64,000 nt of DNA from an uncultured Solibacteraceae bacterium (lineage in GTDB: Bacteria > Acidobacteriota > Holophagae > Holophagales > Holophagaceae): NCBI GenBank assembly GCA_964434895.1, contig CAYSXG010000001.1, positions 1,701 to 65,700 of the forward strand, read 5' to 3'. Of this stretch, positions 39,664 to 54,500 are shown in pieces. Positions within the stretch are counted from its first letter, which is position 1, and every line of letters starts with the position of its first letter. Position numbers and translations under genes: made by a program. The notes beneath the pieces were generated by a model. The model was not told the origin of the DNA. It ran no database searches and saw only the letters and a program-made list of their open reading frames with translations.

Positions 39664-40244
39664 GGGTTCACCTGTCCAGAAAGGGCGATCCGGCCCAGCA
39701 CCGTGTCCACCTCGGCCGTGATGCTGAGGGCGTCAAGACCCGCGAGGACCGCCACGGAAAGCACCTCCACCACGCGGGGATCCGACCGGAGCACGGAAGC
39801 CACCTCCAGGCGGGCCTGGATCGCCAGAGGGACGTCCAGGGGGCGGCCCAGGAAGGCCTGGAGGCCGCTTCCATAGGTGGGGTGCTGGGGCAGATAGCCT
39901 CGCGGGGTCTGGAGGCGGCGCAGCAGGGCGCCGGCGAGGTTTTCAAGGGAGCGCACCAAGCGATCCGGGCCGGTTTCGCTCAGGTCCGTCCCTACGAGGT
40001 CCACCTCGGGGGCGAGCGTCTCCACGCCAGGCTCCCCCGGCACCACCAGGAAGTCGCCCGCGCCGAGAACCTGGCCCCGGGCCGGGATGACCCCAGGAGC
40101 GCCACCCAGTCCCGAAAAATCGAGGTAGGGCCAGACGAGGCCATTGAGGTCCACGATCTCCGGCCAGCGGGCCATGTCGCCCAGCTCCCGGGCCGCGATG
40201 GCCTGAAGGGTGTTCCCCGCGAAGATGGCAACGCGCTTAGACAC
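39660..40244 (-). CDS. LysM-like plus gp25/gpW-like baseplate wedge protein
   Basis: 194 aa. The N-terminal NTLQAIAARELGDMARWPEIVDLNGL resembles LysM. The C-terminal RRLQTPRGYLPQHPTYGSGLQAFLGRPL resembles gp25/gpW. Confidence 0.6.
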   Translation of the reverse strand: MSKRVAIFAGNTLQAIAARELGDMARWPEIVDLNGLVWPYLDFSGLGGAPGVIPARGQVLGAGDFLVVPGEPGVETLAPEVDLVGTDLSETGPDRLVRSLENLAGALLRRLQTPRGYLPQHPTYGSGLQAFLGRPLDVPLAIQARLEVASVLRSDPRVVEVLSVAVLAGLDALSITAEVDTVLGRIALSGQVNP

Positions 40245-41265
40245 GCCGCCCCCCCTGGGCCGCCCGCTTGATCTCGCCGGCGAGGCGCTGGGCGTCCCGG
40301 GCCGCCTTCCGGATGTCGGCGATGTTGGAGCCCGTCACGGCCCGCACGTCCCGGATCGCGTTGCGTGTGTCGTAGAGGATCCCGGTGGCCGCCTGGGCCA
40401 GGGCGTGGGCCTGGTCCGTGATGCCTTGGACGAAAACCTTGCCTTGAGCCAAAGCCGCCTGGGCCTTGGAGCGGATGGCTTTCACGTTCTGGACCATGGT
40501 CTGGAGGTTGGCGAAGAGGCCCTTGTTCTTGTCCCAGGGCTTGAGCCCCAGCTTGTCGAGGGCCGAACTCAGGGCGTCAGCCTTCTGGGCGATGGAGGCC
40601 GCAGTGCCCGCCAGGGGGCCTCCCACCGGATCCTTCTTGGCCGGATCCTTGGTCTCCTCTCCGAGAACCAGGAAGCTCCAGTCCCAGTCCCACGCCATGG
40701 GGTTGGCGTTGGAGCGGGTCCAAGAGGGCGCCGACTCTGGCTGGATCCAGAGGAGGCGGTATTGGAGTTCCGAAGGGCCGCCCCCCGTGATGAGGAACTG
40801 GAGGCGGAGGGCGGCCTTGTTCTCCTGGAGGCGCTTCTGGTTGGCCGCGGCAAAGTCCACAAAGAAGGCCTGGACATCCTCGGCCGCCGCGAGGCCCAGC
40901 GTCTTCTCCGCGTCGCGATTCTTGTTGTCCGGGCCCATGGGGCCCCAGACGCCATGCGTCCCGTTGATCGACCAGCGCCCCAGGCCGGGGCCGCCATCCA
41001 AGGCGCTCACCTTGCCGGCGGCGTCCACAGTGGCCTGGCCACGCCAGGGGCGCACAGCGTTCAGGCTCTGCGGCGGCATGAGGAAGGCCACCTTGTTCAC
41101 TTCCTTCCCTGCCTCGTCCACGGAGCGGATGAGGTAGGAGGCCAGCTTGGGCGCCGTGCCCGCTTTGGAGGCCTCGCCCGTCACCGCCACGGTGGCTCCC
41201 GGGATCGACGGTAGGCCCGGCACCTTCGAGGCGAAGGACCCAAGGATTGCTCCGAAGTCAGGCAT
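40237..41265 (-). CDS. Virion protein (342 aa, unknown role)
   Basis: Track ORF lying between the head and baseplate genes, with a helical C-terminus. Confidence 0.45.
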   Translation of the reverse strand: MPDFGAILGSFASKVPGLPSIPGATVAVTGEASKAGTAPKLASYLIRSVDEAGKEVNKVAFLMPPQSLNAVRPWRGQATVDAAGKVSALDGGPGLGRWSINGTHGVWGPMGPDNKNRDAEKTLGLAAAEDVQAFFVDFAAANQKRLQENKAALRLQFLITGGGPSELQYRLLWIQPESAPSWTRSNANPMAWDWDWSFLVLGEETKDPAKKDPVGGPLAGTAASIAQKADALSSALDKLGLKPWDKNKGLFANLQTMVQNVKAIRSKAQAALAQGKVFVQGITDQAHALAQAATGILYDTRNAIRDVRAVTGSNIADIRKAARDAQRLAGEIKRAAQGGRRV

Positions 41266-42044
41266 CAGAGCACCATGAGATCGGGGCCGTCCCAGAGGCC
41301 GAGGAGGTGATCGCGCACCATGTCCGCCTCAGCCTGGAGGCGGTCCTCCAAGTCCTTGTAAACGAAGCCGGAGGCGCGGGATTGGGAGAGGCCATCCGCC
41401 GAGAGGCTGGTGAGAATCTCAGGGTTCGCCAGCAGTGAGAGCTGGGGCAGCACCTGGATGGAGGCCCGCAGGGCCACCAGGCGGCCCACCTGGGGCCACT
41501 TGGCCAGCCCCGCAGGACCGAGGCCGGCTGTGTAGTTCAACAGAACGGCGTCCGGAAGCTGGCGGCCCGTGAGGCCGATGACCGGGCCTGCCATGCCGGT
41601 GAACATGAAGGGAGCCCCCATGGGACTGGGGGCGATGAGGACTTCACCCGGAATGTGGTCCACCCGGAACCAGGAGAGGGGCATCGCCACGGGGGACTGG
41701 ATGCCGCCCGGGAAACTCAGGGTCACGCCCTTGAGCTCCACCAGGGGCCGGACCTTGGAGCGCAGCCGCGGGAAGCCATCCGAGGGAATGGAGCCGGGCC
41801 AGACGTAGGGCCCTTCCTGCTCAGGGTCCGCCGCAGCGTCCCAGGGGCCTACCCCCATGCCGGACTGGAATTCCTTGATCTGGAGACGGGTCGAAAGCTC
41901 CTGCTCCACCCACGCTTCCGCCTCCAGGATCGCCCCGTCCAAGTCCCCGTTCGAGATGGACTCGAAGCGGGCCCCAGGCCCAATGAGGCCCGAGAGGAGC
42001 CCGGCCCGGAGGGTGGCGGCAGTGATCCCGGAGGCGTCGCTCAT
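41265..42044 (-). CDS. Virion protein (259 aa, possible head-tail connector)
   Basis: Track ORF. The assignment rests on position only. Confidence 0.4.
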   Translation of the reverse strand: MSDASGITAATLRAGLLSGLIGPGARFESISNGDLDGAILEAEAWVEQELSTRLQIKEFQSGMGVGPWDAAADPEQEGPYVWPGSIPSDGFPRLRSKVRPLVELKGVTLSFPGGIQSPVAMPLSWFRVDHIPGEVLIAPSPMGAPFMFTGMAGPVIGLTGRQLPDAVLLNYTAGLGPAGLAKWPQVGRLVALRASIQVLPQLSLLANPEILTSLSADGLSQSRASGFVYKDLEDRLQAEADMVRDHLLGLWDGPDLMVL

Positions 42045-42047
42045 GGG

Positions 42048-42431
42048 CTACTTCTTCCGGCCCTTGGCCTGGTCGAGCTTGGCCTGATCCTCGGCCAGCT
42101 TGGCCTTGGCAGCCTCCTCGGCGGCGGCATCCTGGGCAGCCTCGGCGGCGGCCACCGCCTGGGCGTCAGCATCCACCGCGGCCTGGTCGGCGGCAATCTC
42201 GGCGTCCAGGGAACCCTCGTCCTCCGCCGGAGCCGGGGGATTCGGCTCGAAGAAGGTCAGGGAGCCGCCGAATGGCTTGAAGGCGGGCACCCGCAGGAGG
42301 TGCTCGGCCTGTTCGGACGTGGCCATGCCCACGAAGATGCCGTCCTCCTTCTCGGCGAAGTGGATGTCGTTGACGATGGGGGGATCGCAGGGGGCGCCCA
42401 GATGGGCGATGGGAACGAGCTCCTGGCTCAT
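42048..42431 (-). CDS. Head-associated protein (127 aa)
   Basis: Internal ATG (residue 51) of track ORF 42048..42581, after GGAGG. The tail is acidic and A/K-rich. Confidence 0.45.
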   Translation of the reverse strand: MSQELVPIAHLGAPCDPPIVNDIHFAEKEDGIFVGMATSEQAEHLLRVPAFKPFGGSLTFFEPNPPAPAEDEGSLDAEIAADQAAVDADAQAVAAAEAAQDAAAEEAAKAKLAEDQAKLDQAKGRKK

Positions 42432-42495
42432 GGGTCCTCCAGAAAGGAAATCGCCGGGGCAGGAAGCCCCACCCCGGCGCAGTTGAGGGAAGGCC

Positions 42496-43941
42496 TTAGT
42501 TGAAGGGCTTCCAGGCAGCGTTGGACGGCAGGACGTTCCGGATGACGCCGTGCTTGCGGGCATCGGGCACCCGCAGGGCACCGAGCAGCATCACCAGCCA
42601 GTTCAGGGAGGCGTCCGTCTGGGCCAGGGGGAACTGGGTCAGCGGCAGCATCTGAAGCCAGGTCATCGCGTTCAGGTTGGGGGCGGAGGTCAGCATGAAG
42701 ACCTCGGAAGTGCCCGGGATGGTGGTGTTCAGGTCGCGCCAGACGGTGGTGCCGCCGGTCTTGGCCACGCGGGCCACCAGGCGCATGTCGGAGGCGGCAT
42801 TGGTGCCACCCAGACGGCCGCGGTAGATCGCGTAGTAGGTTTCGGTACCCCCGGCCGTGATGGTCACGTCGATGGCGCCGCCCGCAGCGACCGTTGCGGC
42901 CGAGACCGTGACGGCGGTGGGGGACACCTGGCCGGCAGACCAGGCCTCCACGCGGTAGTAGTAGGCACCGGCCTGGGCGTTGATCCAGGAGGAGTTCGCC
43001 ACGGTGGGGGCGACGGCCGCGCAGGCCACGGTGGGGGCGGTCAGGGTGGGCGCGTTGGGGTTCGTCACCTCGACGGGGACCTTGTTCTCTTCCACGTAGG
43101 CGTGGGGGATGATCTCGGCGTAGCCCTGGCCGATGCCAACGGCGCTGTAGTTGAAGCCCTTGACCGGGACGCCAGTGACCGTGTTGGGAACGGCGGTGTC
43201 CAGGTTCACGCGGTAGCCGCTGATGAGGCTCTTATCCAGGTCGTACTTGACGTTGGAGCTGGTGTAGAGGAGATCGGGCTTGCCGAACTGGGGGCGCTTG
43301 GCGATGCGCTGGGCGAGGTCCGCGAGCTGCGTGTGGTCGCTGAAGGTCGTGCCCTTCATGTCGATCACGTTTCCGGCGGCGCCGTTCTGGATCAGGGCCT
43401 GGAGGCCGTTGATCTCATAGGTGCTCACGGTGCGGTCGCCGTAGAAGAGGCCCCACTCGATGGTTTCCAGAAGGGTCAGGGCGGCGTTGACGTTCTCCTC
43501 GGAGACCGTGGAGAAATTGGTGGCGCCAGCGCGGTTCTGGAGAACGCCCTGGAGGGCCGTCACCAGGGACACGGAGCGCCGGTCCATGAAGACGCCGAGC
43601 TCCGTCAGCAGGCGCTGATAGTCGCCCTGGCGGTCGGGGCGGCCGGTGCCCTGTTCCGTGGAGAAGGCGCTGCCGGGGAAGCCGCCGATGCCCTTCTTGA
43701 TGATCTGCTGGTCCAGCATGGAGAAGCTGTCCCGCTTGTGGGGCAGCAGGCGGTTGAAGAGGTCGAAGTGCTTGTTCTCGACCGTGACCGAAAAAAGCAC
43801 GGGGTCGAGGTTTTCGACACGGAGCGCACCAGCGCCAGTGAGAGCGGAGAGGTCGGTCCCGGCGCCCTTCGTTCCAGTCAGCGACTTGACGATTTCACGC
43901 GCAGGGCCGCCAAGGGCGGAAAGGATTTCGAGGGGATCCAC
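42496..43941 (-). CDS. Major capsid protein (HK97-fold type, with an Ig/FN3-like insertion)
   Basis: 481 aa, following the protease and scaffold genes. It contains an inserted beta-sandwich-like segment (YYYRVEAWSAGQVSPTAVTVSAATVAAGGAIDVTITAGGTETYYAIYRG). Confidence 0.65.
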   Translation of the reverse strand: MDPLEILSALGGPAREIVKSLTGTKGAGTDLSALTGAGALRVENLDPVLFSVTVENKHFDLFNRLLPHKRDSFSMLDQQIIKKGIGGFPGSAFSTEQGTGRPDRQGDYQRLLTELGVFMDRRSVSLVTALQGVLQNRAGATNFSTVSEENVNAALTLLETIEWGLFYGDRTVSTYEINGLQALIQNGAAGNVIDMKGTTFSDHTQLADLAQRIAKRPQFGKPDLLYTSSNVKYDLDKSLISGYRVNLDTAVPNTVTGVPVKGFNYSAVGIGQGYAEIIPHAYVEENKVPVEVTNPNAPTLTAPTVACAAVAPTVANSSWINAQAGAYYYRVEAWSAGQVSPTAVTVSAATVAAGGAIDVTITAGGTETYYAIYRGRLGGTNAASDMRLVARVAKTGGTTVWRDLNTTIPGTSEVFMLTSAPNLNAMTWLQMLPLTQFPLAQTDASLNWLVMLLGALRVPDARKHGVIRNVLPSNAAWKPFN

Positions 43942-44002
43942 GGGTTTCTCCTTTGAGGTTCCGGACGATTCCGGGCTGGGGTGGATGCGGGGTTGAGGAG
44001 CC

Positions 44003-44770
44003 TCAGTCAGCGGCTCGCTGGCAGAGGAGGGCGACTTCGAGGGAGGAGAGCTTTCCGCTCTCCGCCAGGGCCTGGACCTGGGCGCGGCTCAGCGGCGCGT
44101 CCGCGCCATCGGAGCCCAGGGCCTTGGTGATTGCGCGGGGGGCGGCGGAAGCCGGCACGGTCTCGTGGAGCTTGTCGAACCGGGACTGAAGCGTGGCGTT
44201 GTCAGCCAGGGCCTTCTTGAGCTCGCGGCCCTGACCCTTGAAACCCGCCTCCAGCTCGGCCACGGTCTGGGTCAGCTTGGCGATGATGTTGTTCTGGCTC
44301 TTCAGCTCCTGGAGGAGTTCCAGGAAGAGGGCGTTCATGTCGGGTTCGGTGATGTCCTCCAGGGTGTCCGTGGGCTCCATATGGCCCACCTCGGCGAGGC
44401 CCTTCTTGATCTCGCGTCCCTCGTCGTCACCTTCGTCGTCGGCGGATTCTTTGTCCGGCTTGGACTCGGCCGCAGCGTCATCACCACCGAATTCCTCGGG
44501 GTCCATGTCCTTGTGGCCGAACTCGTTGAAGTCGTCGCCCTGGTCCGCGTCAGCACCGGCGTCATCCCCGGATTCCTTGGCCTTGTCCAAATCCTCGGAG
44601 GTCGGCGAAGCGTCGCCCACACGGGAGTCGAGGCGGTCGGGATCGGCCGGGGGCTCCGGGACGGGATTCTTCTTCTGGTCCTCGGCCTGGTCCTTGCCCT
44701 CGCCCTTCGCCTCACCCTCGTTGAGGGACTTGAGGATGGAGCGGGCCTTTTCGGCGAGATTGGCGAACAT
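44003..44770 (-). CDS. Scaffolding protein
   Basis: 255 aa, highly acidic and helical, lying between the protease and the capsid gene. Confidence 0.6.
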   Translation of the reverse strand: MFANLAEKARSILKSLNEGEAKGEGKDQAEDQKKNPVPEPPADPDRLDSRVGDASPTSEDLDKAKESGDDAGADADQGDDFNEFGHKDMDPEEFGGDDAAAESKPDKESADDEGDDEGREIKKGLAEVGHMEPTDTLEDITEPDMNALFLELLQELKSQNNIIAKLTQTVAELEAGFKGQGRELKKALADNATLQSRFDKLHETVPASAAPRAITKALGSDGADAPLSRAQVQALAESGKLSSLEVALLCQRAAD

Positions 44771-44778
44771 CGAGCCTC

Positions 44779-45648
44779 CTAAGCGGCGGCGCCCAACAGG
44801 GCGAGCAGGACCGCGAACGTGTGGTTCTGGGGGACGCCCTGGGCCTGCATGGCCTCAAAGAGGGCGGAAGGGGACGCAATCCGGCCTTCGGCGAGGGCCT
44901 CCAGAACGGACTGGACGGTTTGCGCGTTGAGGTCGCCGGGCAGGTCCGACTGGGCCAGTTGGGAGCCGCGAAGGTCGCGCAGCACGGCGGCCAGACCTTG
45001 GGCACTACCGAGGGCCTTAGCGAAGGTGCGAAGCGGGAGGGTGGTGAGCGCGGGCACATCCGGGTTCACCGGCGTCCGGGATAGCCCCACGCTCTGCCAG
45101 AGCAGGCCACCGATTTCCGTGGTGGGCAGGCCCGATGGGTCCACCACGCCGGCCTCGTTCGTGACCATGCCGTGGACGGAGGGATACCAAAGCACCGGCG
45201 GCGCCGTATGCAGACTGTCCCAGAACAGGTCCGCCGCTTCGGTCCAGCGATTGCCGTCCTGCGCGGAGGAGAAGATGGCGGCCTTCACCATGACGGAATC
45301 GCCCTCGGGGCGGGCGTCCAGGGGGCGACCAATTTCCCAGGCGTAGGGGTCCACGCGCTGCCCGCGAATCTGGCCGATCACCGAGGCATGGTCCAGGTCG
45401 ATGCGGCCGTGGCGGAGGAAGTAGGGAATGGACCCAATGAGGGCCCGCGCCAGGATCCGCTCACCCTGCACATCACGGGACTGGGTGGAGGCCTGGAAGT
45501 AGACGCAGCGGACGCCACCTTCAACGTGGGGCGTCGCCTTCATCAGCAGGCGGCCCGTCTCCACCCGGAAGGGGATGCCAGGCTGATCCGCACCGCTGGC
45601 CAGGGCCATGAGGCCGACCGCCGCGGCTGTGGTGAGGGGACTCGCCAT
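44779..45648 (-). CDS. Prohead maturation protease (HK97/S78-like)
   Basis: 289 aa. DVQGERILARAL...HGRIDLDHAS..VIGQI and LWQSVGLSRTPVNPDVPAL match the His and Ser regions of the family by eye. Confidence 0.6.
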   Translation of the reverse strand: MASPLTTAAAVGLMALASGADQPGIPFRVETGRLLMKATPHVEGGVRCVYFQASTQSRDVQGERILARALIGSIPYFLRHGRIDLDHASVIGQIRGQRVDPYAWEIGRPLDARPEGDSVMVKAAIFSSAQDGNRWTEAADLFWDSLHTAPPVLWYPSVHGMVTNEAGVVDPSGLPTTEIGGLLWQSVGLSRTPVNPDVPALTTLPLRTFAKALGSAQGLAAVLRDLRGSQLAQSDLPGDLNAQTVQSVLEALAEGRIASPSALFEAMQAQGVPQNHTFAVLLALLGAAA

Positions 45649-45775
45649 GGGGCGAGAGTCAGCCGATTCAAAGCCCCCGTGCCGAGCCGTCCCGCGCCAT
45701 TACGCGATGACGCGAGGCGCCGGGAAATGGGGCCGGAGCACCCGGGGACGCTGGACAGGCAAGAGGAGCGACCGC

Positions 45776-48700
45776 GTGACGCACATCAAGGCCTTCTACC
45801 GCAAAGTCAACGGCCGGGTGGTCTATGTGTCGGATCACGATGACAAGCGGACCACCGCGACTCTTCATCAAGCCGCGAGCACGCGCACCCCCAAGGCGCA
45901 CCCTCCGAAGGCCCTTCGCCATGGGATCACGCCTGGATCACACCGGGACGGAAGCCACTTCCTCCGGGCTGGCAGCCGAGAGGGCGCCGAAGCCATCCAG
46001 GAAGCCGCCCGAAAGCACGGGATCTCCCTCTCCCACCGCAAATCCCCGGCCATCCACCAGGGACAGCGCGACGTCTTCAGCCACTTCCATCACGCGGATC
46101 TTAAGGCCATCAAGGCGGTCCACACGGAACTCCAGACCCAGCAGATCCAGAAGGACTCGAATGAGGTCTTCGGGGACCAGGAGAAGGCCCGAAAGGCCTA
46201 CGAGGCCCATCCGGAGAGCAAGGGCGGGAAAAAGATCGACGTGGACGAGGCCCGTGAGCTGGTCCCCAGCTACCGGGAGAACCGGACCCTCGGGGCAGCG
46301 ATTGTCCACGCCGACGCCTCGAAGTTCGCCAAGGAGCAGTTCGAGCACCGGATGGCCATGCCCAAGCAGGAGCGGAACGAGGTTGTGGCCTTCATGGCCG
46401 GCGGCGGAGGCTCAGGCAAGGGCACGGCCGCAGACAAGTTCCAACTTGAGGACGCCGCTCATACCATCGTGGACGGCGCCTTTTCCAACTTCGAGAAGGC
46501 CAAGGCTCAGATCGAGCGGGCCCGCGCCTCGAAGAGAAGGGTGGAAATCAATTTCGTGTACCGGCCGATTGAGAAGGCCGTGGCCGGGATGGTGGGCCGG
46601 GCCCACGGAACGGGGCGCATCGTTCCCCTGGACGTGCTGGCCGAGGCGCACCGGGGCGCCCACGAAACCATCCGCAAGCTCATCGAGCACTACGGCGAAT
46701 CGAACCCCATGGTCCGCATCCGCATCTTCGACAACAGTGGGGACAGCATCCATGACGTGACCGCCGTGCCGCGCCAGGACATGCTCAAGTTCCTCGACAA
46801 AACCGCCTACGACGACACCATTGCGGATCGCGTCGCCGGGGCCTATCGTGAGGTTAGGGAGAAAGGCTATGAGCACAAAGGACAACGACATCAAACTGAA
46901 TCCCGAATCACCGATCACCTCGACCGAGGATTGCGAGCCCTGGACGGACGAGGAATTCGACACCCGCACGGAGCAGCTACTGGGCATCCTTCGGGGGACG
47001 AAGGCGGCAACCAAGCACGACGCCCCAGAGACGAAGGCGAGCTAGACCCGAAGAAGCCCGGGAGGGGCATCGCCAAGGCCCTCCGCGAGATCTTCAAGGC
47101 TCATATCAAGGGCCACATTCGCGTGATCGACGGCAAGACCGTCTGGATCGCCGCGCACGAGGACAAGCGCCAGGGCCGAGAGGCCCGGCTGCACGAGCGC
47201 ACGGTCAGGGGCGAGACCAGGGGCGGCCTGCACTACCTCCGCGCCAGCGACGCCGACGATGCGGCCACCATCCGGAAGGTTGCCCACCGGGCGGGGATCT
47301 TCCCGGTCGAGCAGAAGGGCAACGCCAACCACCTGGGCCGGGAGGGGAACTACACCCACTTCCATTTCCAGTTCCCGGGGCAGGCCGAGGCCGTACACCA
47401 GGCCCTGCGCGACCAGCAGGAGGCCCCTGAGCCGATTCAGGCCGGGCTATTTGATGAAGTGCCAGAGCAAATCGGTGGCCCCACCGAAATGGTCCCGGCC
47501 GAGCGTGCGGTAGCAGAACCCAAGGAAGACGGCCCCAAGGACAGGGCTCCGCACTGCATGTATCCCTCTCTCGTGGATGACGTGCAGCGGGAAAAAATTG
47601 AACAATGGCACAGGGATGGCGCAGACCCCGCACGAAGGCCCGCTGAGAGGGCTATTTACCTACCTGGAATGTCAAAGGGGAAACTCGACAGACTTCTTCA
47701 AAAAAACACCATGACCCTAGACGAAATTGAGGGCCTCAAGGACTACAAGTATCTAATCCTGGCGCAGCCTAACGATGCTTGGGAAATGGGCTTCATGACC
47801 CGCTACGCAAGCGATCATGGCGATGTATTGGCCCCCAAGAACAAGTTTCTACTTACGAACATTGACGCCAAGCTAGAAGGGGTATCGAACCCTCCGCAAG
47901 AGGGCCCCAAGGAAGGCGACCGCAACGAGGAACGCCTCGTCTTCCATGACGGCCGCTGGCACCGCGATAATCCCGCCCCTTCCGATCCGCCAAGCGTGGA
48001 AACGGATACGGGGGCGCCCGAGCCCGTGCCGGCGCCCCCAGCCTCCGACCCCATCGCCCTCGAAACTCGGCGGGCCCTCCTGGAGCGCATCGACCAGGGG
48101 ACCATCACCCCGGCGGAGCTGGTCCAGGCCTGGGAGGCCTTCCAGGTGGCCAAGCCCGGACTCAAGGCCGAGCTGGATGGCCTCAGCAAGGCCAAGTGCA
48201 TCGAGCGGATCCGCCCCCTCGGATTCAATGTGGACCCCAAGACCAAGATGACCAAGGACAGCATCATCAAGGCCGTCCTGGACCGGATGACCAAGCCCTT
48301 CAACGTCCAGGGCGTGATGAGCTGGTCCCCGTTCTCCGAGACCTACGAGGCCGCCCTGGACCGCGTGGTTCGCGCCACCACCCCCGAGCAGATCGCCACC
48401 CACGCCGCAGAGGTGGCCCAGGCCAAGGAGAACCGCAAGGCCGCGCTGGAGAAGATCCAGAAGGCCATCGAGAACCCGGAGACCCTGGAGGACTTCGAGC
48501 TCCGGGCCAAACAGGAGGCCCCCGATCTCACCGCCGAGCAGCGCCGGCGGTGGGAGGAACTCAAGGCCGACGCCCAGCGCCAGGCCACCGGCGCGAAGGC
48601 TCCCACACCGGCGGCCAGCATGGACGGCCTGGACCTGGAACTCCACGATACAAAGCACACCAAGACCGGCGAGACGCTCCACGTCGTCACCATCAGCCAG

Positions 48701-50155
48701 CGGGTGGACCGCAGCATCTACGAGCAGCTCCTGGCCAAGGCCAAGGGCCTGGGCGGGTGGTACAGCTCCTACCGCGGGAACGGAGCCATCCCGGGCTTCA
48801 CCTTCAAGACCCCAGAGGCCGCCAAGGCATTTATGGGGCAAACCAGCGAGGAGGGCGCCATAGCCCCGGTCCCCGCCGCTGAGGAGCGCCAGGCCGTCCG
48901 CCAGGAGAAGGTGAGCAGCAAGCTCCGGGACATGGCCGAGAAGATGAAGGAACAGGCCGAGGGCTCCCTAGTCCAGGACCGCCGCACCGGCACCCACCGC
49001 CAGGCCCGAATGGCCGCCAGCGCCGAAGCCGTAGCCCATGGCCAGATCGCCATGGCCAACACCATGACCAACCTGGCCGCCGCCATCGAAGAGGGGAAGG
49101 CCAAGCACTTGGCCGGACTCACCACCAGGACCCAGATCGAGACCCTGAACAGCATCCTCAGCCAGGCCATCCGTGAACACCAGAGGGCCCAGGGCCTCAG
49201 CTACGCCCAGAAGCAGGCCGAGGAAGGCCGCGCCGCCAATCAGGAGGACGTGGACCACGCCGAATACCCCTACCCGGAAATCTGGGATCACATCTTCGGG
49301 AACATCACACGGGAAGCCACGCACGTCCCAGGGACAAAACGAGCCCTTGCCCGGCTCGCCACCGCGCTCCATGGCAAGGAGCACATCAAGCTGGACACCC
49401 CGGACCTCATCGAGGCCGGGACCACCCTGGCCCAGAAGATCGGGAACACATCCATCGGGAAGCGCCTCAAGGATCTCCTCACCCGCTACACCCGCCTCCA
49501 GGCCGCCAGGATCCAAAGCCCTGAGCAGCTCCGGGCTGCCCTGCGCGAGTACCTGGTCTACAAGTCCATGGCCCCGGGCGCGGACCCCATCAAGACTGCC
49601 GAGCGCTCCCTCATCGGCGCCAAGATCCCAGGCTACTTCCCAACCCCCTCGGCCCTGGCCCAGGAGGTGGTGGACAAGGCCGACATCGCCCCCGGCATGA
49701 AGATCCTGGAGCCCTCCGCCGGCAAGGGGAGCCTCATCGACGCCATCCACGAGGCCTACGGCAAGGACGCCGTGGAGGTGGAGGCCATCGAGCCCGTCTC
49801 CAGCCTTCGGACCATCCTGGAGGCCAAGGGCCACAAGCTGGTGGGCCGGGACATCATGGAGCATGAGGCCCTGGAAGGGTACGACCGCGTGGTGATGAAC
49901 CCACCCTTCGAGAACGGCCAGGACATGGAACACGTCCGGAAGGCCTTTGAACTCCTGAAGCCAGGCGGCCGCCTGGTGGCCATCACCTCTCCGGCCCCCT
50001 TCTTCCACCAGAGCAAGAAGGCCCAAGCCTTCCGCGAATGGTTCGATAGCCTGGGCGGAGTCCAGGAGAAGAACCCCGACGGCAGTTTCAAGGCGAGCGA
50101 CAACCCCACAGGCGTTGCCACCCACACCCTCATCATCGACAAGCCCGCGGCCTAG
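45776..50155 (+). CDS. Giant polyvalent-type protein: repeated LPD-like modules, Zeta-toxin-like P-loop kinase domain, C-terminal N6-adenine DNA methyltransferase
   Basis: The track ORF is 45608..50155. I prefer GTG 45776 (8 nt after AGGAG), with ATG 45707 as the alternative. Walker A is FMAGGGGSGKGT, near 46391. MTase motif I is ILEPSAGKG (about 49703) and motif IV is NPPF (about 49897). Continuity across 46869..47045 is doubtful. Confidence 0.55.
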   Translation: MTHIKAFYRKVNGRVVYVSDHDDKRTTATLHQAASTRTPKAHPPKALRHGITPGSHRDGSHFLRAGSREGAEAIQEAARKHGISLSHRKSPAIHQGQRDVFSHFHHADLKAIKAVHTELQTQQIQKDSNEVFGDQEKARKAYEAHPESKGGKKIDVDEARELVPSYRENRTLGAAIVHADASKFAKEQFEHRMAMPKQERNEVVAFMAGGGGSGKGTAADKFQLEDAAHTIVDGAFSNFEKAKAQIERARASKRRVEINFVYRPIEKAVAGMVGRAHGTGRIVPLDVLAEAHRGAHETIRKLIEHYGESNPMVRIRIFDNSGDSIHDVTAVPRQDMLKFLDKTAYDDTIADRVAGAYREVREKGYEHKGQRHQTESRITDHLDRGLRALDGRGIRHPHGAATGHPSGDEGGNQARRPRDEGELDPKKPGRGIAKALREIFKAHIKGHIRVIDGKTVWIAAHEDKRQGREARLHERTVRGETRGGLHYLRASDADDAATIRKVAHRAGIFPVEQKGNANHLGREGNYTHFHFQFPGQAEAVHQALRDQQEAPEPIQAGLFDEVPEQIGGPTEMVPAERAVAEPKEDGPKDRAPHCMYPSLVDDVQREKIEQWHRDGADPARRPAERAIYLPGMSKGKLDRLLQKNTMTLDEIEGLKDYKYLILAQPNDAWEMGFMTRYASDHGDVLAPKNKFLLTNIDAKLEGVSNPPQEGPKEGDRNEERLVFHDGRWHRDNPAPSDPPSVETDTGAPEPVPAPPASDPIALETRRALLERIDQGTITPAELVQAWEAFQVAKPGLKAELDGLSKAKCIERIRPLGFNVDPKTKMTKDSIIKAVLDRMTKPFNVQGVMSWSPFSETYEAALDRVVRATTPEQIATHAAEVAQAKENRKAALEKIQKAIENPETLEDFELRAKQEAPDLTAEQRRRWEELKADAQRQATGAKAPTPAASMDGLDLELHDTKHTKTGETLHVVTISQRVDRSIYEQLLAKAKGLGGWYSSYRGNGAIPGFTFKTPEAAKAFMGQTSEEGAIAPVPAAEERQAVRQEKVSSKLRDMAEKMKEQAEGSLVQDRRTGTHRQARMAASAEAVAHGQIAMANTMTNLAAAIEEGKAKHLAGLTTRTQIETLNSILSQAIREHQRAQGLSYAQKQAEEGRAANQEDVDHAEYPYPEIWDHIFGNITREATHVPGTKRALARLATALHGKEHIKLDTPDLIEAGTTLAQKIGNTSIGKRLKDLLTRYTRLQAARIQSPEQLRAALREYLVYKSMAPGADPIKTAERSLIGAKIPGYFPTPSALAQEVVDKADIAPGMKILEPSAGKGSLIDAIHEAYGKDAVEVEAIEPVSSLRTILEAKGHKLVGRDIMEHEALEGYDRVVMNPPFENGQDMEHVRKAFELLKPGGRLVAITSPAPFFHQSKKAQAFREWFDSLGGVQEKNPDGSFKASDNPTGVATHTLIIDKPAA
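46869..47045 (+). CDS. 58-codon +1-frame ORF embedded in the giant ORF (acidic mini-protein, or the ancestral frame)
   Basis: ATG after AGGGAGAAAGG. MSTKDNDIKLNPESPITSTEDCEPWTDEEFDTRTEQLLGILRGTKAATKHDAPETKAS. My hand count of third-position GC is about 80% in this frame and about 50% in the main frame, which has 7 CGA codons here. Confidence 0.4.
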   Translation: MSTKDNDIKLNPESPITSTEDCEPWTDEEFDTRTEQLLGILRGTKAATKHDAPETKAS

Positions 50156-50177: not shown

Positions 50178-51365
50178 ATGACCACCGAAGCCAAAGGCCT
50201 TCCCGGCGAAGAGGCCGCCCTGCACGAGCGGACCGCCTGCGGGGCGCACAAGGACGGGTCCTTCTACCTCCGTGCTTGCGACGAGGAGGACGCGGGCCAC
50301 ATCGAGGCCGCCGGCAAGAAGCATGGCATCAGCATGGAGAAGCGCAGCGCCGAGGCCGAGCACCACGGCCGCAAAGGCGTTTACCCCCACTTCCACAGCA
50401 AGGACGCCGCAGGCCTCAAGAAGGTGCTGGAGAGCCTGAAGCCCGAAGGGGAGGCCCAGGAGGAAGGCACTGACACCCCCACAGATACCCACGATGGCGG
50501 CAAGCACATCCACCTCCACCTTCACGAAGGCGAAGGCCGGGAAGTGAAGAAGAGCCACATCGCCGACTACGCACAGACGCGAGGCGGGAAGTTGGTCCAA
50601 GTTCGCAGCCACGAGCGGCACCCCATCGACCACCAACTCCGGCACATCTTCGAGTCGATCCGAAAGGGCCATCGCGCACGGGCCGAGGGCCGAATCCTGA
50701 CCCACGAGGAGGTCAAAAAGCACCTCTCCCGCTTTGACGAGTCTCCCCGCCAGACCACCGTTGACGAAGCGATTCATGACGCCGAGAAGAAGGACGGTCT
50801 CAGCCACGAGGAGACTGGGGCACGGTACAGCGAGGCGGCCAATCGGGCAGAGGGTCTAAGCCAGGCCAACTACGAAGGGGTGCCCAAGGCCGAGGACGAA
50901 TACGCTGCCCACGAGGCCCATACCGAAGCCGCCAAGCGGGCGCGGGAACACGCCGAGGCCTTGGGGGACGGGAAGGAGCAGCATGGCGGCACCGCGTCCG
51001 ACTACCACAAGGCCGCCGCCGACCATGACAAAGCCGCGGCCTGGCACAAGTACCTGGGTGACGCGAAGATGAAGGGCCGCCCCGTGAAGAAGTCCTTGGA
51101 TCCAGCCCAGGCTGACGCCTTGGCCGAGGTCTTGGGAGCCGCCCAGCGATGGAACGCCGAAAGCAGCAACCCCCGCTCCATCACCAAGGCCCTGGGCGAG
51201 ATGGACGAAGCCCAGAAGGCCTTGGACGCCATCTTTCAGGCCGCCCAGACCGGGCTCGACCACGGCACCGTGCTTGACGCCATCAACCTCGCCACCGGCG
51301 GCGCCGCCAAGTTCCATTCGGCGGTGGACGAACTCCTGAAACAGAAACCAAGCGCCATGCCGTGA
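50178..51365 (+). CDS. His-rich polyvalent-associated protein carrying the third copy of the repeated module
   Basis: ATG after AAGGAG (residue 22 of track ORF 50115..51365). Module sequences are LHERTACGAHKDGSFYLRACDEEDAGHIEAAGKKHGI...YPHFH and KKSHIADYAQTRGGKLVQVRSHERH. Confidence 0.55.
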   Translation: MTTEAKGLPGEEAALHERTACGAHKDGSFYLRACDEEDAGHIEAAGKKHGISMEKRSAEAEHHGRKGVYPHFHSKDAAGLKKVLESLKPEGEAQEEGTDTPTDTHDGGKHIHLHLHEGEGREVKKSHIADYAQTRGGKLVQVRSHERHPIDHQLRHIFESIRKGHRARAEGRILTHEEVKKHLSRFDESPRQTTVDEAIHDAEKKDGLSHEETGARYSEAANRAEGLSQANYEGVPKAEDEYAAHEAHTEAAKRAREHAEALGDGKEQHGGTASDYHKAAADHDKAAAWHKYLGDAKMKGRPVKKSLDPAQADALAEVLGAAQRWNAESSNPRSITKALGEMDEAQKALDAIFQAAQTGLDHGTVLDAINLATGGAAKFHSAVDELLKQKPSAMP

Positions 51366-51543: not shown

Positions 51544-54500
51544 ATGGACGGCCTTCTCTTCCGCGACCCCTCTGGGGAGGTTCTACCTCTGGAGGTGGTG
51601 GGCTGGGACGAGCTTGACCTCCGCGAGATCACGAAGGGAGGCGACGCCGCTCCGCCAGGCGCCCGCTGGATCACCGTCCACCCCCATGGGAGCGATGGGC
51701 CCGGCCGCCCCGTCCTCATCCGCGAGGTGAAGGGCAGCCACGGCGTCTTCCACATCGTCGGCGGCGCCTCCGGCAAGCTGAACGGCCTCCGCCTCCAGAA
51801 CGTGAAGAGCCCCGAGGAATACAAGGCCGCCGCGAAGGATCGCGCCAAGGAACTCAAGGCCAAGCGCAAGGAAGCGGAGAAGAGCCTCACGCCCGAAGAG
51901 CGCGAGAGCCGCAAGCTGGACAAGCAGGCCGCGCATTCAGCCGTGAAGGACGCGGAGAAGCGCCTCATCGAGGCCACCCTCAAGGCCAAGGGCCTGGATC
52001 CGGCACAGGCCGAACTGGACACCGACAACAACCTGGCGCGGGTAAAACATCACCGGGCCCTGCTCTCCGAGGCCATGAAGAGCGCCGCCCAGGCGGAGAA
52101 GTCCCTGGTGCTGGACGCCCAGGCCCGCATGGAGGCCGGCCTTGAGACCGTGGGCGGCGACCAGCAGCTTGACGCGGATACCGTGCTCACCACCAAGGAC
52201 GTGGAGGCCGGCGCCGGCTACCAGCGTGGCCTGAAACAGAAGGCCGAGGAGGCCGGGCTCACCCAGCAGGGGCTGGCCGACACTGCGGCCGAGCTTCGGG
52301 AGCAGGCCGCCAAGAACCGCGTGGAGGCGGGCGACTTCACCGACTACCACACCAAACTCGGGGGCGGGGATCCCGTCCTCGGCATCCAGATCGTCGGCGC
52401 CCGCATGGGCGAGCTGAACCGCCAGGCCCACCAGCAGGCGAAGGCCGCCCAGGGCCACGCCACCCAGAACACCCGCGAGGCCATGAAAGCGGCGGCCACC
52501 GACAACCAGGCCCTGGCCGAGATCCTTGCTGCCCGGAAAGCCTTGCGGGAGGCCCTGAAGGGGGCCAAGCAGGGCAAGCCCCCCATCTTCGCCAAGGCCT
52601 TCCAGGCTCACCTGGAAGAGCTCACCGATGGAGCAATCCAGGACATCGAGGACCAACTCCGCACCGAACGGTTCCAGGGGTTCCTGGATGAGGTGGAGAA
52701 ATCCTTCCCCGAGCCCACGAGCACCATCGACCCGGACCACATCCCCGAGGATGGGCTCCACGCCAGCCGCCACACCGGCGCCTTCGACGCCCTCCACGAG
52801 ATCGGCCTGGGCGTCATGGGCCAGGGCGCCATCAGCCGCGAGGCCGTGGAAGTCCTGGGGCCGGATGGCGCCGCCACCATCCTGGCCCGCGCCCTCAAGA
52901 GCGGCTACACCCACGAGGAGCAGGCCGAAATCCTGGAGGCCCTTGAAGGCGTCCACCAGGACGAGCAGGAGAAGGATCTCCCCCAGGCCATGGCCTATGC
53001 CTCTCAGCTTCGGGACGAGGCGGCCAAGGTCGGGGAAGAACTGGCCGAGAATGCCAAGGATCTGGCCATCGCCGCCGAGATGCAGCGCAACAAGGTGGCC
53101 TTGCTCAAGGAAGCCCGGCGCACCGTGGGCGCGATGCTGGGGCGCATGGAGGCCCGGGCGGCCCTCATCGCCGCCATGCAGGGCGCCCCCAGCGACCGCC
53201 TGACGGTCCCCATCGGGAAGAACCGGGAGACCGCCATCCAGGCCGCCTACGCCCTGGGCCTGGAGAATGGGGACTACCACCTGGACCAGGACCGGGGCGA
53301 GGTGCTCCTCCATCTCACCGGCCAAGGGCAGAATCGCCTCATTCGCCCCGTAGACCAGGCTGCCCTCGCCGAGCGCGAGACGGCCATGGCCATCAAGCGC
53401 GGCGACCTTGACGAGGACGGCTGGATCCCCAAGGGGTTCACCCGCCGCACCGCCCTCCGGAGCGATGACCCACTCCTGGAGCCCCCCATGTTCCGCCAGC
53501 CGTTCCAGGTGGCCCCCGATGCCACGCCGGAGCAGCTCCAGGAATCCATCGAGGACTACATCGGGGCCCGCTACGCAGACGGCGACCGCGCCACGGACAT
53601 CCTCCAGAGCCTCAACAACGCCAGCCGGTTGGATTCTGTTCCGGAGCCCCTCTGGGAGACCTACCAGGAGAAGGTCCGCCAGGCCCTGCCCCTCCGAGAG
53701 GCCGTCCTAGACGCCGAGGGAAACCAGGCCTTCGACGTGGACGAGGACAGCGACGAGCAGCTCCCCCGCACCCGTGCCGCCAAGGCCGAGACCATCGACC
53801 GGGCCGCCCAGGCCATGGCCGAGCGCTACTTCGAGCGCAAGGGCCTCCGGGGCGACCTAGCCTTCTACCGTCAGGGCATCGACCCGGATAGCGATGCCTT
53901 CCGAGAGAGCGCCCACCGGGCCCTGGCCAAGAACCCGCGGGCCTCCGCGGCCTTCACCCCTGTCGGAGAGCTCACCAGCGACCAGCAGCGGGACCTGCGG
54001 GAGCACTTTTACGAGAGTCTGGCCCAGCAGAGCGCCAAGAAGGAGACCCGGGCCCAGAACAACGAGGCCGCCGCTAAGGATGCGGCCGGGCCGGAGCCCC
54101 CGGAGTACGAGCTCGATATGTTCGGGGAGCAAAGCCACACCCCGGAATGGCTGGAATGGCACGAGCGCGTCCAGACAAACCTGGCCGCCGAGCAGGGCCA
54201 GGCCGAGGGCGCCGCGCCAGCCGAGGACCCGGAAACGCCATGGGCCCGCTTCGTGGAGACCATGGGCGGGCTCAAGGACGCCCAGAGGGCCGTCCAGGAC
54301 CACATGGCCAGCGAGTTCCTCGGGAACTTCGCCGAGAGCTACCAGAACGCCACGGGCCAGAAATTCAAACAGGGCCAGGCCAAGGTCCATATGGCCGACA
54401 AGTTCATCAAGGCCACCGGGACTGCGGAGCAGAAGGCCCAGGCCCGGGCCGAGCGCCAGGCAGAGGTGGAAGCCAACCGTGGGCGCGGACCTGGCGGGAA

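Follow-up and report, generated by a model that had tools for sequence, protein, structure and literature searches.

In phage lambda, the spanin gene Rz1 is embedded in the +1 frame of Rz, and the pair functions in lysis. In the epsilon/zeta and PezAT systems, the epsilon and PezA genes lie upstream of the toxin gene and do not overlap it. EzeT is a Zeta toxin with a cis-acting antitoxin domain at its N-terminus, in the same frame (PMC4826407). The polyvalent proteins of phages and conjugative elements include Zeta-toxin-like kinases (Iyer et al. 2017, PMC5512222); a term search of that paper found neither ‘overlapping’ nor ‘frameshift’. Phages that produce toxic effector domains and load them into virions must avoid premature death of the producing cell. 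The locus described here bears on how they do so, and a partner protein that is genetically inseparable from the toxin domain is one possible answer and a testable candidate. We analyzed a 64,000-nucleotide stretch of phage DNA (the window) in which a giant ORF carries a Zeta-like kinase. The original prediction held that coding switches to the +1 frame just after this domain. Our results indicate that 46869-47045 is probably dual-coding, the +1 frame there holding a conserved overlapping gene which travels with the kinase domain.

The host ORF and its kinase domain

The main-frame features of the locus are as follows.

45776..50155, + strand: giant polyvalent-protein gene, host of the overlap (ORF list and sequence)
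45776..46135, + strand: N-terminal module copy 1, with the motif (M)THIKAFYRKVNGRVVYVSDHDDKR and then a ..HFLRA...HFHH domain (self tblastn, translation)
46163..46954, + strand: Zeta-toxin-like kinase domain, main frame (Pfam, PDB, homologues, alignment A1)
46232-46261, + strand: D-x-D-x-A-R motif of the kinase, invariant in alignment A1
46391-46426, + strand: kinase Walker A FMAGGGGSGKGT, with GGGGSGK invariant in alignment A1
46955..47065, + strand: main-frame flexible linker (IRHPHGAATGHPSGDEGGNQARRPRDEGELDPKKPGR), which joins the kinase cassette to the next module and underlies the conserved half of the small gene
47066..47419, + strand: module copy 2, GIAKALREIFKAHIKGHIRVIDGK... to ...HFHFQFPGQAEAVHQALRDQQ, homologous to the N-terminus of the stand-alone proteins P0019, P0028, P0036, P0106 and P0118
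49700..49990, + strand: methyltransferase domain at the C-terminus of the host ORF (Pfam MTS, E = 1e-5, residues 1365-1461)

The frame of this 1515-codon ORF is open from ATG 45608. Its start is probably GTG 45776, because GAGGAG (45763-45768) precedes this codon, no clear frame signal is seen in the first 56 codons, which overlap a divergent gene (44779-45648), and homologous proteins begin at the HIK/HVK module; this would correct the annotation of the window. Like a polyvalent protein, the ORF brings together a Zeta-like kinase, a methyltransferase and repeated modules; its surroundings are those of a phage, with Baseplate_J and SLT genes, and it adjoins a helicase-containing giant ORF. Its relatives span 2,000-5,500 aa, and those of 2,500-5,500 aa carry LPD domains; residues 791-1514 match 5,500-aa ORFs at two loci (L003 and L004) as well as P0019. 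At a syntenic locus, L005, the module-to-methyltransferase gene stands alone with its own SD and ATG and has no kinase cassette, and the synteny places the cassette as an addition at the 5′ end of a P0019-like gene. Judged by this synteny, the host ORF is a genuine in-frame accretion of module, kinase and nested gene onto a methyltransferase gene that stands alone in the relative. We looked for a start codon belonging to module copy 2 in the window and found none. The original prediction had seen no canonical start before GTG 47123, and indeed frame 0 between 47045 and that codon contains no ATG, GTG or TTG. ATC 47069 was considered as a non-canonical start of the downstream part and rejected: GGGAGGGG is spaced only ~3 nt from it, and the read-through frame is open and conserved.

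Close relatives of the whole ORF were sought in several ways. Neither the host ORF nor 20 kb of the window had a megablast match among phages and plasmids, the 1515-aa product had no identical entry on record, and a word-indexed protein search with residues 301-631 gave nothing; tblastn of residues 57-760 against 50,697 phage records returned one weak kinase match only.

The kinase itself is readily placed. Both its Walker A P-loop and its acidic motif are intact; by comparison with zeta and PezT, we take GGGGSGK to be Walker A and D-x-D-x-A-R to be the substrate-activating motif. The domain matches Pfam Zeta_toxin (PF06414) with E = 7e-14 and 52.2 bits against a cut-off of 22.3, and the zeta_1 toxin of PDB 6eph/6epg with E = 1.3e-18, and 1,882 homologues of the kinase family are detectable. 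Homologues sharing 35-46% identity follow the main-frame peptide, with the conserved pattern Y..v.E.GYE..G...........L(D/E).(G/R)G, and for those at 35-43% the main-frame alignment covers 46844-46954, as in window AYREVREKGYEHKGQRHQTESRITDHLDRGLRALDGRG versus P0004 TYRDIAERGYENQKGQHQTLKPAVKDTLEASSRRLEGRG, where E, G, Y and G are invariant (alignment A1); the conserved C-terminal helix ends in ..LDGRG at 46954. Coding thus does not switch frames here, since the main frame is still coding, and the main-frame peptide that had been called odd is, on these alignments, the conserved C-terminal helix and Gly-rich linker of the kinase family.

Codon usage and conservation in the two frames

The elements of the candidate nested gene are as follows.

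46856..46860, + strand: SD-like GGGAG of the nested ORF, 8 nt upstream of its ATG (7 nt from the GGAG core)
46869..47045, + strand: nested +1-frame small gene of 58 codons plus TAG, MSTKDNDIKLNPESPITSTEDCEPWTDEEFDTRTEQLLGILRGTKAATKHDAPETKAS (codon scan, homologue conservation)
46938..46997, + strand: small-protein core, a PWTDEE motif plus a predicted amphipathic helix DEEFDTRTEQLLGILRG (alignment A2, AlphaFold2)

What the original prediction reported of the two frames was confirmed by recounting. The main frame does lose its coding signature, with a GC3 of 0.47 and seven CGA codons among the 60 codons of 46868-47047; in the rest of the phage, CGA accounts for 5.6% of Arg codons. The +1 frame, described as having ~80% GC3, an SD-like sequence, an ATG and 58 aa up to a TAG ending at 47045, has GC1/2/3 values of 0.53/0.47/0.81 across 46869-47042, typical of genes here; AGGGAGAAAGGCT precedes ATG 46869 and the stop is TAG 47043-47045. 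All three signals are assembled from main-frame codons: the SD-like GGGAG from AGG GAG, the ATG from a rare TAT (Tyr) followed by G, and the TAG from a rare CTA (Leu) followed by G. A codon-usage log-likelihood scan over 10,489 windows of 59 codons, using 28 confident genes of the window, found two places only in which +1 outscores the annotated frame: 46796-47089 (minimum -35.8 nats) and the start of ORF 36434-38599, which is mis-set. The best-fitting switch points, 46845-46878 and 47030-47045 (gain 41 nats), coincide with the +1 ATG and TAG. This frame-specific signal far exceeds chance. The host ORF has a second main-frame GC3 dip at 47415-47900, where the frame preference is not flipped; the objection that such dips might be common in the ORF therefore does not apply, the flip being unique save for the mis-set start. 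As a candidate for a second frame anomaly, 47415-47900 was discarded: the main frame wins the codon score, and the main-frame translation of the segment is 69% identical to P0132.

Conservation of the +1 ORF extends across the kinase family, and it occupies the corresponding position at every homologue locus that could be assessed. An ORF of 48-58 codons lies at the same site in 9/9 group-1 loci (L006, L007, L008, L009, L010/11, L012, L021, L022 and the window), all nine with GGAG 6-7 nt upstream of the ATG, and its stop falls at a consistent distance across homologues. Because the lineages are related, probabilities multiplied over them overstate significance, and the following values should be read in that light: the Tyr codon overlapping the start is TAT in 8/8 independent lineages (product of expected frequencies 6e-6), the preceding codon ends in G, which keeps GGAG, in 8/8 (chance 1e-3), and the +1 frame stays open under synonymous reshuffling with a probability product of 8.5e-5 over 8 lineages. 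Part of the +1 conservation is also an automatic by-product of main-frame conservation; for example, Trp arises from Leu (CTG/TTG) before a G-initial codon, and the SD from an invariant Glu GAG.

Measures that compare the frames point the same way. In the second half of the overlap, identity is 0.40 in the +1 frame versus 0.27 in the main frame, and when the codon alignment is guided by the main frame, +1 identity is 0.50 of the main-frame value over the kinase core and 0.93 and 1.20 times that value over the two halves of the overlap. Where residues are identical, synonymous differences amount to 0.07-0.25 within the overlap, compared with 0.36-0.52 in flanking sequence (Fisher p = 3e-5, 3e-3 and 0.06). 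Main-frame GC3 in the overlap is below both flanks in 24/25 lineages and below the flank mean in 25/25 (p = 6e-8). The locus thus displays what marks an overprinted gene: an ORF kept open, initiation signals kept, synonymous constraint in the host frame and excess amino-acid conservation in the +1 frame. Among the options first offered for the anomaly, it is the overprinted small gene that these data favor, with ORF, ATG and SD conserved in every homologue examined.

A comparable arrangement accompanies more distant kinases. In the IPxV subfamily the host residue at the start codon is N, D, H or Y, always encoded by NAT and followed by G, so that the ATG is kept while the residue changes. In the stand-alone kinases of L039, L046, L047 and L049, the +1 ORF straddles the kinase stop, with 30-37 codons before it and 35-74 codons beyond. 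An orphan copy (P0151, at L052) on a phage contig is a called 85-aa gene with no kinase upstream, and its +1 ORF persists over a host frame interrupted by stops. Evidence that the two kinase subfamilies have homologous small peptides is only suggestive, at an hhalign probability of 61% and with best E values of 0.006-0.06 (L020, L046 and L048) in an unbiased six-frame HMM search, and group 2 is therefore treated as the same arrangement rather than as proven orthologues; outside the IPxV set, its +1 starts were picked by eye.

Within the small protein, W25, L41 and G43 are invariant (alignment A2), the invariant Trp codon of the PWTDEE motif being 46941-46943. AlphaFold2 predicts one helix of 17 residues (27-43), with a mean pLDDT of 84 for residues 21-30 and 88 for residues 31-40. 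The C-terminal tail of the window’s peptide is divergent and acidic, and the peptide as a whole has a pI of 4.5 versus 6.1-10.4 in homologues, so the acidity is not conserved. Searches of the small peptides against Pfam, PHROG and PDB gave nothing significant, the 58-aa peptide matched none of 50,697 phage records by tblastn, and a viral-contig scan with one small peptide re-found only L010 and L011. The small-protein profile had one match only among 5.8 billion called proteins. One called protein, set against a +1 ORF at every assessable kinase homologue locus, suggests that gene callers overlook this family.

Alternative explanations for the frame signal

Viewed from the window alone, +1 codon usage that looks native and a main frame full of rare codons would fit two compensating indels, real and recent or introduced in assembly, that displaced an ancestral +1 stretch and left a meaningless main-frame peptide. 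This had been one option of the original prediction, and the alignments speak against it: independently assembled homologues match the main-frame peptide, not the frame-shifted one, across 46844-46954. The dual-frame pattern moreover recurs in 8 or more unrelated assemblies, which errors cannot explain, and the region has no homopolymer longer than 4 nt; we regard compensating indels as scarcely conceivable. Another option was that a kinase gene whose stop used to be TAG 47045 was joined by a single indel to its downstream neighbor, the main frame then crossing out-of-frame sequence by chance. It draws on the syntenic relative, where module 2 through methyltransferase is a separate gene with SD and ATG while the window lacks a start there, and on the stand-alone kinases, where the +1 ORF passes the kinase stop. 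The main frame is conserved beyond the proposed indel site, however, and in L006, L007, L009 and L012 it also traverses the small ORF into unrelated downstream domains, so that read-through is the family norm and not a local accident. Nor does the +1 ORF continue the kinase frame: its ATG and SD are its own and conserved, and in L006 the +1 frame ahead of that ATG stays open for just 4 codons. Main-frame conservation in homologues effectively rules out compensating indels and an indel-made fusion alike, and we rate the latter as extremely unlikely; in evolutionary terms, the synteny with L005 does uphold the idea that the giant ORF is a chimera. A third possibility is a recent mosaic piece from a lower-GC phage, the high +1 GC3 then reflecting only that the codons of a Gly/Arg/Asp/Glu/His-rich peptide tend to begin with G or C. 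In the overlap, GC1 of the main frame is indeed 0.80, and the host ORF contains another low-GC3 cassette, at ~47540-47900, that looks acquired. We dropped this explanation as exceedingly improbable because 24/25 lineages, with genomic GC ranging from 52% to 66%, show the GC3 dip at the corresponding position; further, the full codon-usage score, beyond GC3, prefers +1 only here, and the rare codons are exactly those that make the +1 start, stop and SD.

Two further explanations were considered. In prfB, an SD-like sequence a few nt upstream of the shift site stimulates frameshifting. A programmed +1 frameshift near 46860 would yield, besides the full-length protein, a truncated kinase with an alternative tail ending at TAG 47045, and in the window the 36 codons ahead of the ATG are free of +1 stops. 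In L006, L007 and L008, however, the +1 frame is closed 4-11 codons upstream, and the conserved ATG and initiation-type SD spacing of 6-7 nt are needless for a frameshift. We found no slippery heptamer (phased XXXYYYZ), stop-stimulated site or run longer than 4 nt in the region, and a frameshift appears very unlikely. Slightly less remote, though still improbable, is a non-coding function that holds the constraint, whether RNA structure, an SD-driven pause or rare-codon slowing between domains, with the +1 ORF incidental. The region lies at a domain boundary and is rich in rare codons, internal SD sequences can pause ribosomes, and synonymous constraint alone is no proof of a second protein. 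Such a function nevertheless fails to explain why the ATG is kept through NAT codons while the host residue varies, why the +1 frame stays open with its stop at a consistent distance, why +1 amino-acid conservation exceeds that of the host frame, and why the orphan +1 ORF persists where the host frame has stops.

Proposed role and comparison with known systems

In the reading that we favor, a conserved overlapping gene, the main frame would encode the last helix of the Zeta-toxin-like kinase and a flexible linker inside a giant phage polyvalent protein, and the +1 frame a distinct protein of 58 residues, with a GGAG and an ATG of its own for initiation. We infer from the sequence that the small protein is expressed, the gene call of the orphan copy P0151 being the single indirect hint of translation; internal starts inside translated ORFs are often weak. 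In the first half of the overlap the kinase helix would dominate, the small protein there being a low-complexity Ser/Thr/Lys-rich tail, and in the second half the Trp motif and amphipathic helix of the small protein would dominate over a main frame that is merely linker. Because main-frame third positions are +1 second positions, they would be fixed by the residues of the small protein, which accounts for a main-frame GC3 of ~0.47, and the rare main-frame codons (TAT, CTA, AGG and seven CGA) would provide the +1 start, stop and SD. Where a polyvalent protein holds the kinase internally, the small gene lies entirely within its coding sequence, and in stand-alone kinases a comparable +1 ORF overruns the kinase stop. 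At this locus, then, a frame-resolved codon-usage anomaly within a long ORF need not be an error and can mark a real second gene, and the locus would add a deeply conserved case of out-of-frame dual coding in tailed phages.

As for its role, we tentatively prefer a cognate partner that may neutralize or chaperone the toxic kinase in the producing cell, in the manner of an immunity protein or antitoxin. Embedding the small gene in the kinase domain would guarantee co-inheritance upon domain shuffling. That the product of the nested ORF is strictly an immunity protein or antitoxin cognate to the Zeta-like kinase, with toxin and antidote in the same nucleotides, is a more doubtful proposition. 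If it is true, the kinase domain would be a self-contained ‘toxin plus antidote’ cassette, which could be shuffled anywhere in a polyvalent protein delivered by the virion and yet spare the producing cell, and orphan copies such as that of L052 would protect phages or hosts from kinases injected by competitors.

Comparison with the known systems sets this proposal in context. The likeness to epsilon/zeta, PezAT and the gonococcal epsilon1/zeta1 pair (PMC5923241; PDB 6eph) lies in a Zeta-family P-loop kinase with a small co-encoded protein. The likeness goes no further where the partner is concerned: the small ORF lies inside or 3′ of the kinase in the +1 frame rather than upstream, its product has no Pfam, PHROG or PDB relatives, shows no similarity to epsilon or PezA and is predicted to form one helix, and the acidity is peculiar to the window. 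The epsilon/zeta analogy raised in the original prediction stands as a hypothesis. EzeT (PMC4826407) offers a precedent for tying an antidote physically and inseparably to a Zeta-type kinase, whereas the candidate partner here would be a separate polypeptide from another frame. With polymorphic and phage MuF toxins (PMC5576092) the locus shares the order of a toxin domain and then a small ORF, overlapping the kinase 3′ end by 30-37 codons in L039, L046, L047 and L049 and nested where the kinase is internal, and the orphan copy at L052 recalls orphan immunity genes. It differs in that the toxin domain is internal in polyvalent proteins and the small ORF is nested out of frame, and the immunity role is putative. 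The host ORF is one of the polyvalent proteins (PMC5512222) by its Zeta-like kinase, methyltransferase and repeated modules. In genetic layout the locus is like lambda Rz/Rz1: a larger phage gene wholly contains a small +1-frame ORF that has its own start, conservation is seen in both frames, and the inner gene is prone to be missed in annotation. Sequence and function are unrelated, however; the host here is one domain of a multidomain polyvalent protein, and the inner gene tracks this kinase domain across architectures, overlapping it only partly in stand-alone kinases.

A frame-specific coding anomaly at the end of the kinase domain

The giant ORF lies in a tailed-phage region of 66% GC, with Baseplate_J and SLT genes upstream on the minus strand. 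Its relevant features are as follows.

45608–50155, plus strand: 1515-codon ORF, whose frame is the main frame
Residues 286–383 of ORF 45608–50155, plus strand: Zeta_toxin match (E = 7e-14)
Residues 1365–1461 of ORF 45608–50155, plus strand: methyltransferase match
46869–47045, plus strand: +1 ORF of 58 codons, from ATG 46869 to TAG 47045, with AGGGAGAAAGGCT before the ATG; peptides of its predicted product include DNDIKLNPESPITSTEDCEPWTDEEFDTR, TEQLLGILR and N-terminal (M)STK

Frame-resolved composition revealed that main-frame GC3 falls from ~0.9 to 0.43–0.50 across about 46845–47030 and then returns to 0.93, while the +1 frame of this stretch has GC1/2/3 of 0.53/0.47/0.81. CGA accounts for 7 of 60 main-frame codons in the stretch, as against 5.6% of Arg codons elsewhere. 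These values uphold the hand counts of the original prediction (main-frame GC3 of ~50%, seven CGA codons in 60, +1 GC3 of ~80%), and the SD-like sequence, ATG and terminal TAG 47045 that it had assigned to the +1 ORF are present in the sequence. In a codon-usage log-likelihood scan (10,489 windows, 28 confident genes), the +1 frame outscored the annotated frame at 46796–47089 (minimum −35.8 nats) and at one mis-set gene start, and nowhere else, and the best-fitting frame-switch points coincided with the ATG and TAG of the +1 ORF. Such dips are thus not common in the giant ORF, a possibility that had been raised against the anomaly: a second main-frame GC3 dip at 47415–47900 leaves the frame preference unflipped. 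The mis-set gene start is that of the SLT-domain ORF (36434–38599, minus strand): a different frame scores higher over its first few windows, its 5′ end runs into gene 38464–39663, and its true start is probably well downstream of TTG 38599.

Conservation of both reading frames among kinase relatives

An exhaustive HMMER search with residues 57–731 of the giant ORF returned 1,882 kinase relatives. The nearest of these, proteins P0001–P0006 (38–46% identity), align to the main-frame peptide all through the first half of the anomaly, with E, G, Y and G invariant.

Window, main-frame peptide: AYREVREKGYEHKGQRHQTESRITDHLDRGLRALDGRG
P0004, main-frame peptide: TYRDIAERGYENQKGQHQTLKPAVKDTLEASSRRLEGRG
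P0003, main-frame peptide: TYDGIRERGYEAKDGSQNPIRQDIQEVLDRSRNRLDEGG

The original prediction held that coding switches to the +1 frame here, and named main-frame conservation as the finding that would count against it; because the homologues do keep the main-frame peptide, a switch is contradicted, and compensating indels, assembly error and a gene fusion made by an indel are all excluded. Its remaining option, an overprinted small gene, is supported by homologue DNA, including that of additional relatives, drawn from collections of viral, metagenomic and genomic sequence. Wherever the main frame has the motif G-Y-[E/D] (L006, L007, L008, L009, L010/11, L012, L021, L022 and the window), the locus keeps a +1 ORF of 48–58 codons with an SD, starting at an ATG formed by the Tyr codon and the next G. 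All of the small peptides have one Trp that does not vary and an amphipathic helix at the C-terminus.

L010, small-peptide core: ...NEWTPEQLKLHGDKVLAALKAGLKAAGAK
L009, small-peptide core: ...KPWTDEERATRGQAVLEALRLGLEKKGV
Window, small-peptide core: ...EPWTDEEFDTRTEQLLGILRGTK...

Codon choice in the host frame preserves these signals. The Tyr codon is TAT in 8/8 lineages treated as independent (product of expected probabilities 6e-6), the codon before it ends in G, giving GGAG 6–7 nt upstream of the ATG (1e-3), and the product for a +1 frame left open after synonymous reshuffling is 8.5e-5; the eight lineages are related, so that each product overstates significance. In the window's phage TAT makes up 9.8% of Tyr codons, and CTA, the source of the +1 TAG, 2.8% of Leu codons. 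Within the overlap, which spans the 3′ end of the kinase domain and the linker behind it, identity in the first half is slightly higher in the main frame (0.30 vs 0.27), and in the second half clearly higher in the +1 frame (0.40 vs 0.27). When codons are aligned with the main frame as guide, the ratio of +1 to main-frame identity is 0.50 in the kinase core versus 0.93 and 1.20 in the overlap halves. In L010, L021 and L022, which are closer relatives, synonymous differences at identical residues drop to 0.07–0.25 in the overlap from 0.36–0.52 in the flanks (Fisher p reaching 3e-5), and in 24 of 25 lineages main-frame GC3 is lower in the overlap than in either flank. Both reading frames of 46869–47045 are under selection: conservation extends to the start, SD, length and core motif of the +1 ORF, and synonymous sites of the host frame are constrained in the overlap. 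From these sequence features we infer that translation of the small protein begins at its own start codon. The rival explanations (an RNA or pausing element, a programmed +1 frameshift, indels or a mosaic origin) are unlikely even when taken together.

The arrangement is not confined to the G-Y-[E/D] loci. A more distant subfamily with the main-frame motif EEIP-x-V shows the same dual-frame layout with an earlier +1 start. Here x is N, D, H or Y, exactly the four residues having NAT codons, and is always encoded by NAT followed by G, with GGAG/GAGG supplied by Glu codons upstream; the ATG thus survives changes of the host residue. At the sequence level, the case for homology between the two subfamilies' small peptides is no more than suggestive: hhalign gave a probability of 61%, and an unbiased six-frame search ranked the +1 ORFs of L020, L046 and L048 (E = 0.006–0.06) highest among non-training matches after L052. 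The contig L052 encodes P0151 (85 aa), the one called protein among 5.8 billion matched by the small-peptide profile.

L052, 1410–1667: P0151, an ordinary gene call between two 122-aa genes, C-terminus ...GWTKAEADAHGAKVLAALKAGLKKAGVK

On L052 no kinase lies upstream of P0151, and stop codons interrupt what is left of the host (kinase-linker) frame, which makes P0151 an orphan copy. Four loci from bacterial MAGs and metagenomes (L039, L046, L047 and L049) have stand-alone kinases. In these, the +1 ORF begins 30–37 codons before the kinase stop and runs 35–74 codons past it, an ordinary order of toxin then small downstream ORF; those of L046, L047 and L049 have comparable Ser/Thr-rich heads followed by a helix. 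This layout suggests how nesting arose: once the kinase domain became internal, its frame would have read through the small neighbouring ORF. In L026/L044, the +1 frame past the kinase (about 1500–2300) shows two consecutive stretches, each with a helix motif and an ETP* end (...PPKWARLALANLKAGLTKNVETP* and ...PPKWAQEVLDRLNRNVKAGMETP*), which suggests that the overlapped unit was duplicated in tandem.

Architecture of the giant ORF

The mechanical start of the giant ORF, ATG 45608, overlaps a divergent minus-strand gene (44779–45648), and the first 56 codons from it, rich in Arg and Gly, give no clear indication of frame. The true start is likely GTG 45776.

GTG 45776, plus strand: GAGGAG 7 nt upstream; the HIK motif is then N-terminal, as in homologous proteins
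45776 to about 47065, plus strand: accreted part (module 1, kinase and nested gene)
45776–46135, 47066–47419 and 50205–50462, plus strand: ~120-aa module; gene 50178–51365 also has an internal SHIADYAQTRGGKLVQVRSHERH motif

The relative L005 is syntenic with window 39660–45648 and carries, at the equivalent position, the gene P0019 (1,149 aa), which has an SD and an ATG of its own. P0019 is the counterpart of that part of the window's ORF which reaches from module 2 to the methyltransferase; the kinase cassette is absent from L005. In the window's ORF, module 1, kinase and nested gene have thus been added in frame to a P0019-like gene, which accounts for the missing start codon of module 2, a lack that the original prediction had correctly observed. 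The module, occurring three times across two adjacent genes, comprises an H-[IV]-K..(x)..G+.V.V..H..+R motif and then an LHERT...HYLRA...HFH domain; it has no Pfam match and stands at the extreme N-terminus of P0019, P0028, P0036, P0106 and P0118. The module might serve in targeting or packaging, or polyvalent proteins might use it as a DNA-binding head.

Further along the ORF, 47540–47900 has lower GC at all three codon positions (main GC3 0.47–0.63) and encodes YPSLVDDVQREKIEQWH...NIDAKLEG. This segment matches P0132 (158 aa) at 69% identity, is missing from the syntenic P0019 and looks like a recently acquired cassette. Two IMG/VR contigs, L003 (5–16624) and L004 (125–16579), are single ORFs of 5,539 and 5,484 codons with a region 35–36% identical to residues 791–1514 of the giant ORF, which places the same C-terminal block in far larger polyvalent proteins of other phages. 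After the kinase/methyltransferase gene come two further large plus-strand genes, 50178–51365 and 51544–56382, each in another frame. The latter (1612 aa) has a Helicase_C domain and the matching downstream genes of L005 carry LPD1, InPase and Helicase_C, so that the whole block is a split polyvalent-protein array.

Possible role of the small protein and known systems

Searches of Pfam, PHROG and PDB with the small peptides found no relatives, and AlphaFold2 predicts a disordered head and a single helix at residues 27–43. The acidic 58-aa product of the original prediction holds for the window (pI 4.5), whereas homologues range from pI 6.1 to 10.4, so acidity is no family trait. The host domain matches the PDB zeta_1 toxin (E = 1e-18) with Walker A and D-x-D-x-A-R motifs intact, and Zeta toxins and phage polymorphic toxins are normally accompanied by a small protein that protects against them (PMC5923241, PMC5576092). 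By this analogy we tentatively favour an immunity or antitoxin-like partner, or a chaperone, of the kinase as one possible role. Nesting would let kinase and small gene be inherited together through domain shuffling.

By the definition of Iyer et al. 2017 (PMC5512222), who noted Zeta-like kinases within such proteins, the host ORF encodes a polyvalent protein; neither overlapping genes nor frameshifts came up in a term search of that paper. Nor did full-text searches on overlapping genes with Zeta toxins or polyvalent proteins turn up a description of the small gene. Kinase and small gene are not an epsilon/zeta pair, from which they differ in gene order, sequence and predicted fold; the suggested likeness is hypothetical. 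The Rz1 gene lies nested within Rz, and the small gene in the kinase is overprinted in the same manner. It joins a known class, the conserved out-of-frame overlapping genes of phages; the more novel reading, that a toxin and its antidote share one set of nucleotides, is possible but less likely than not.
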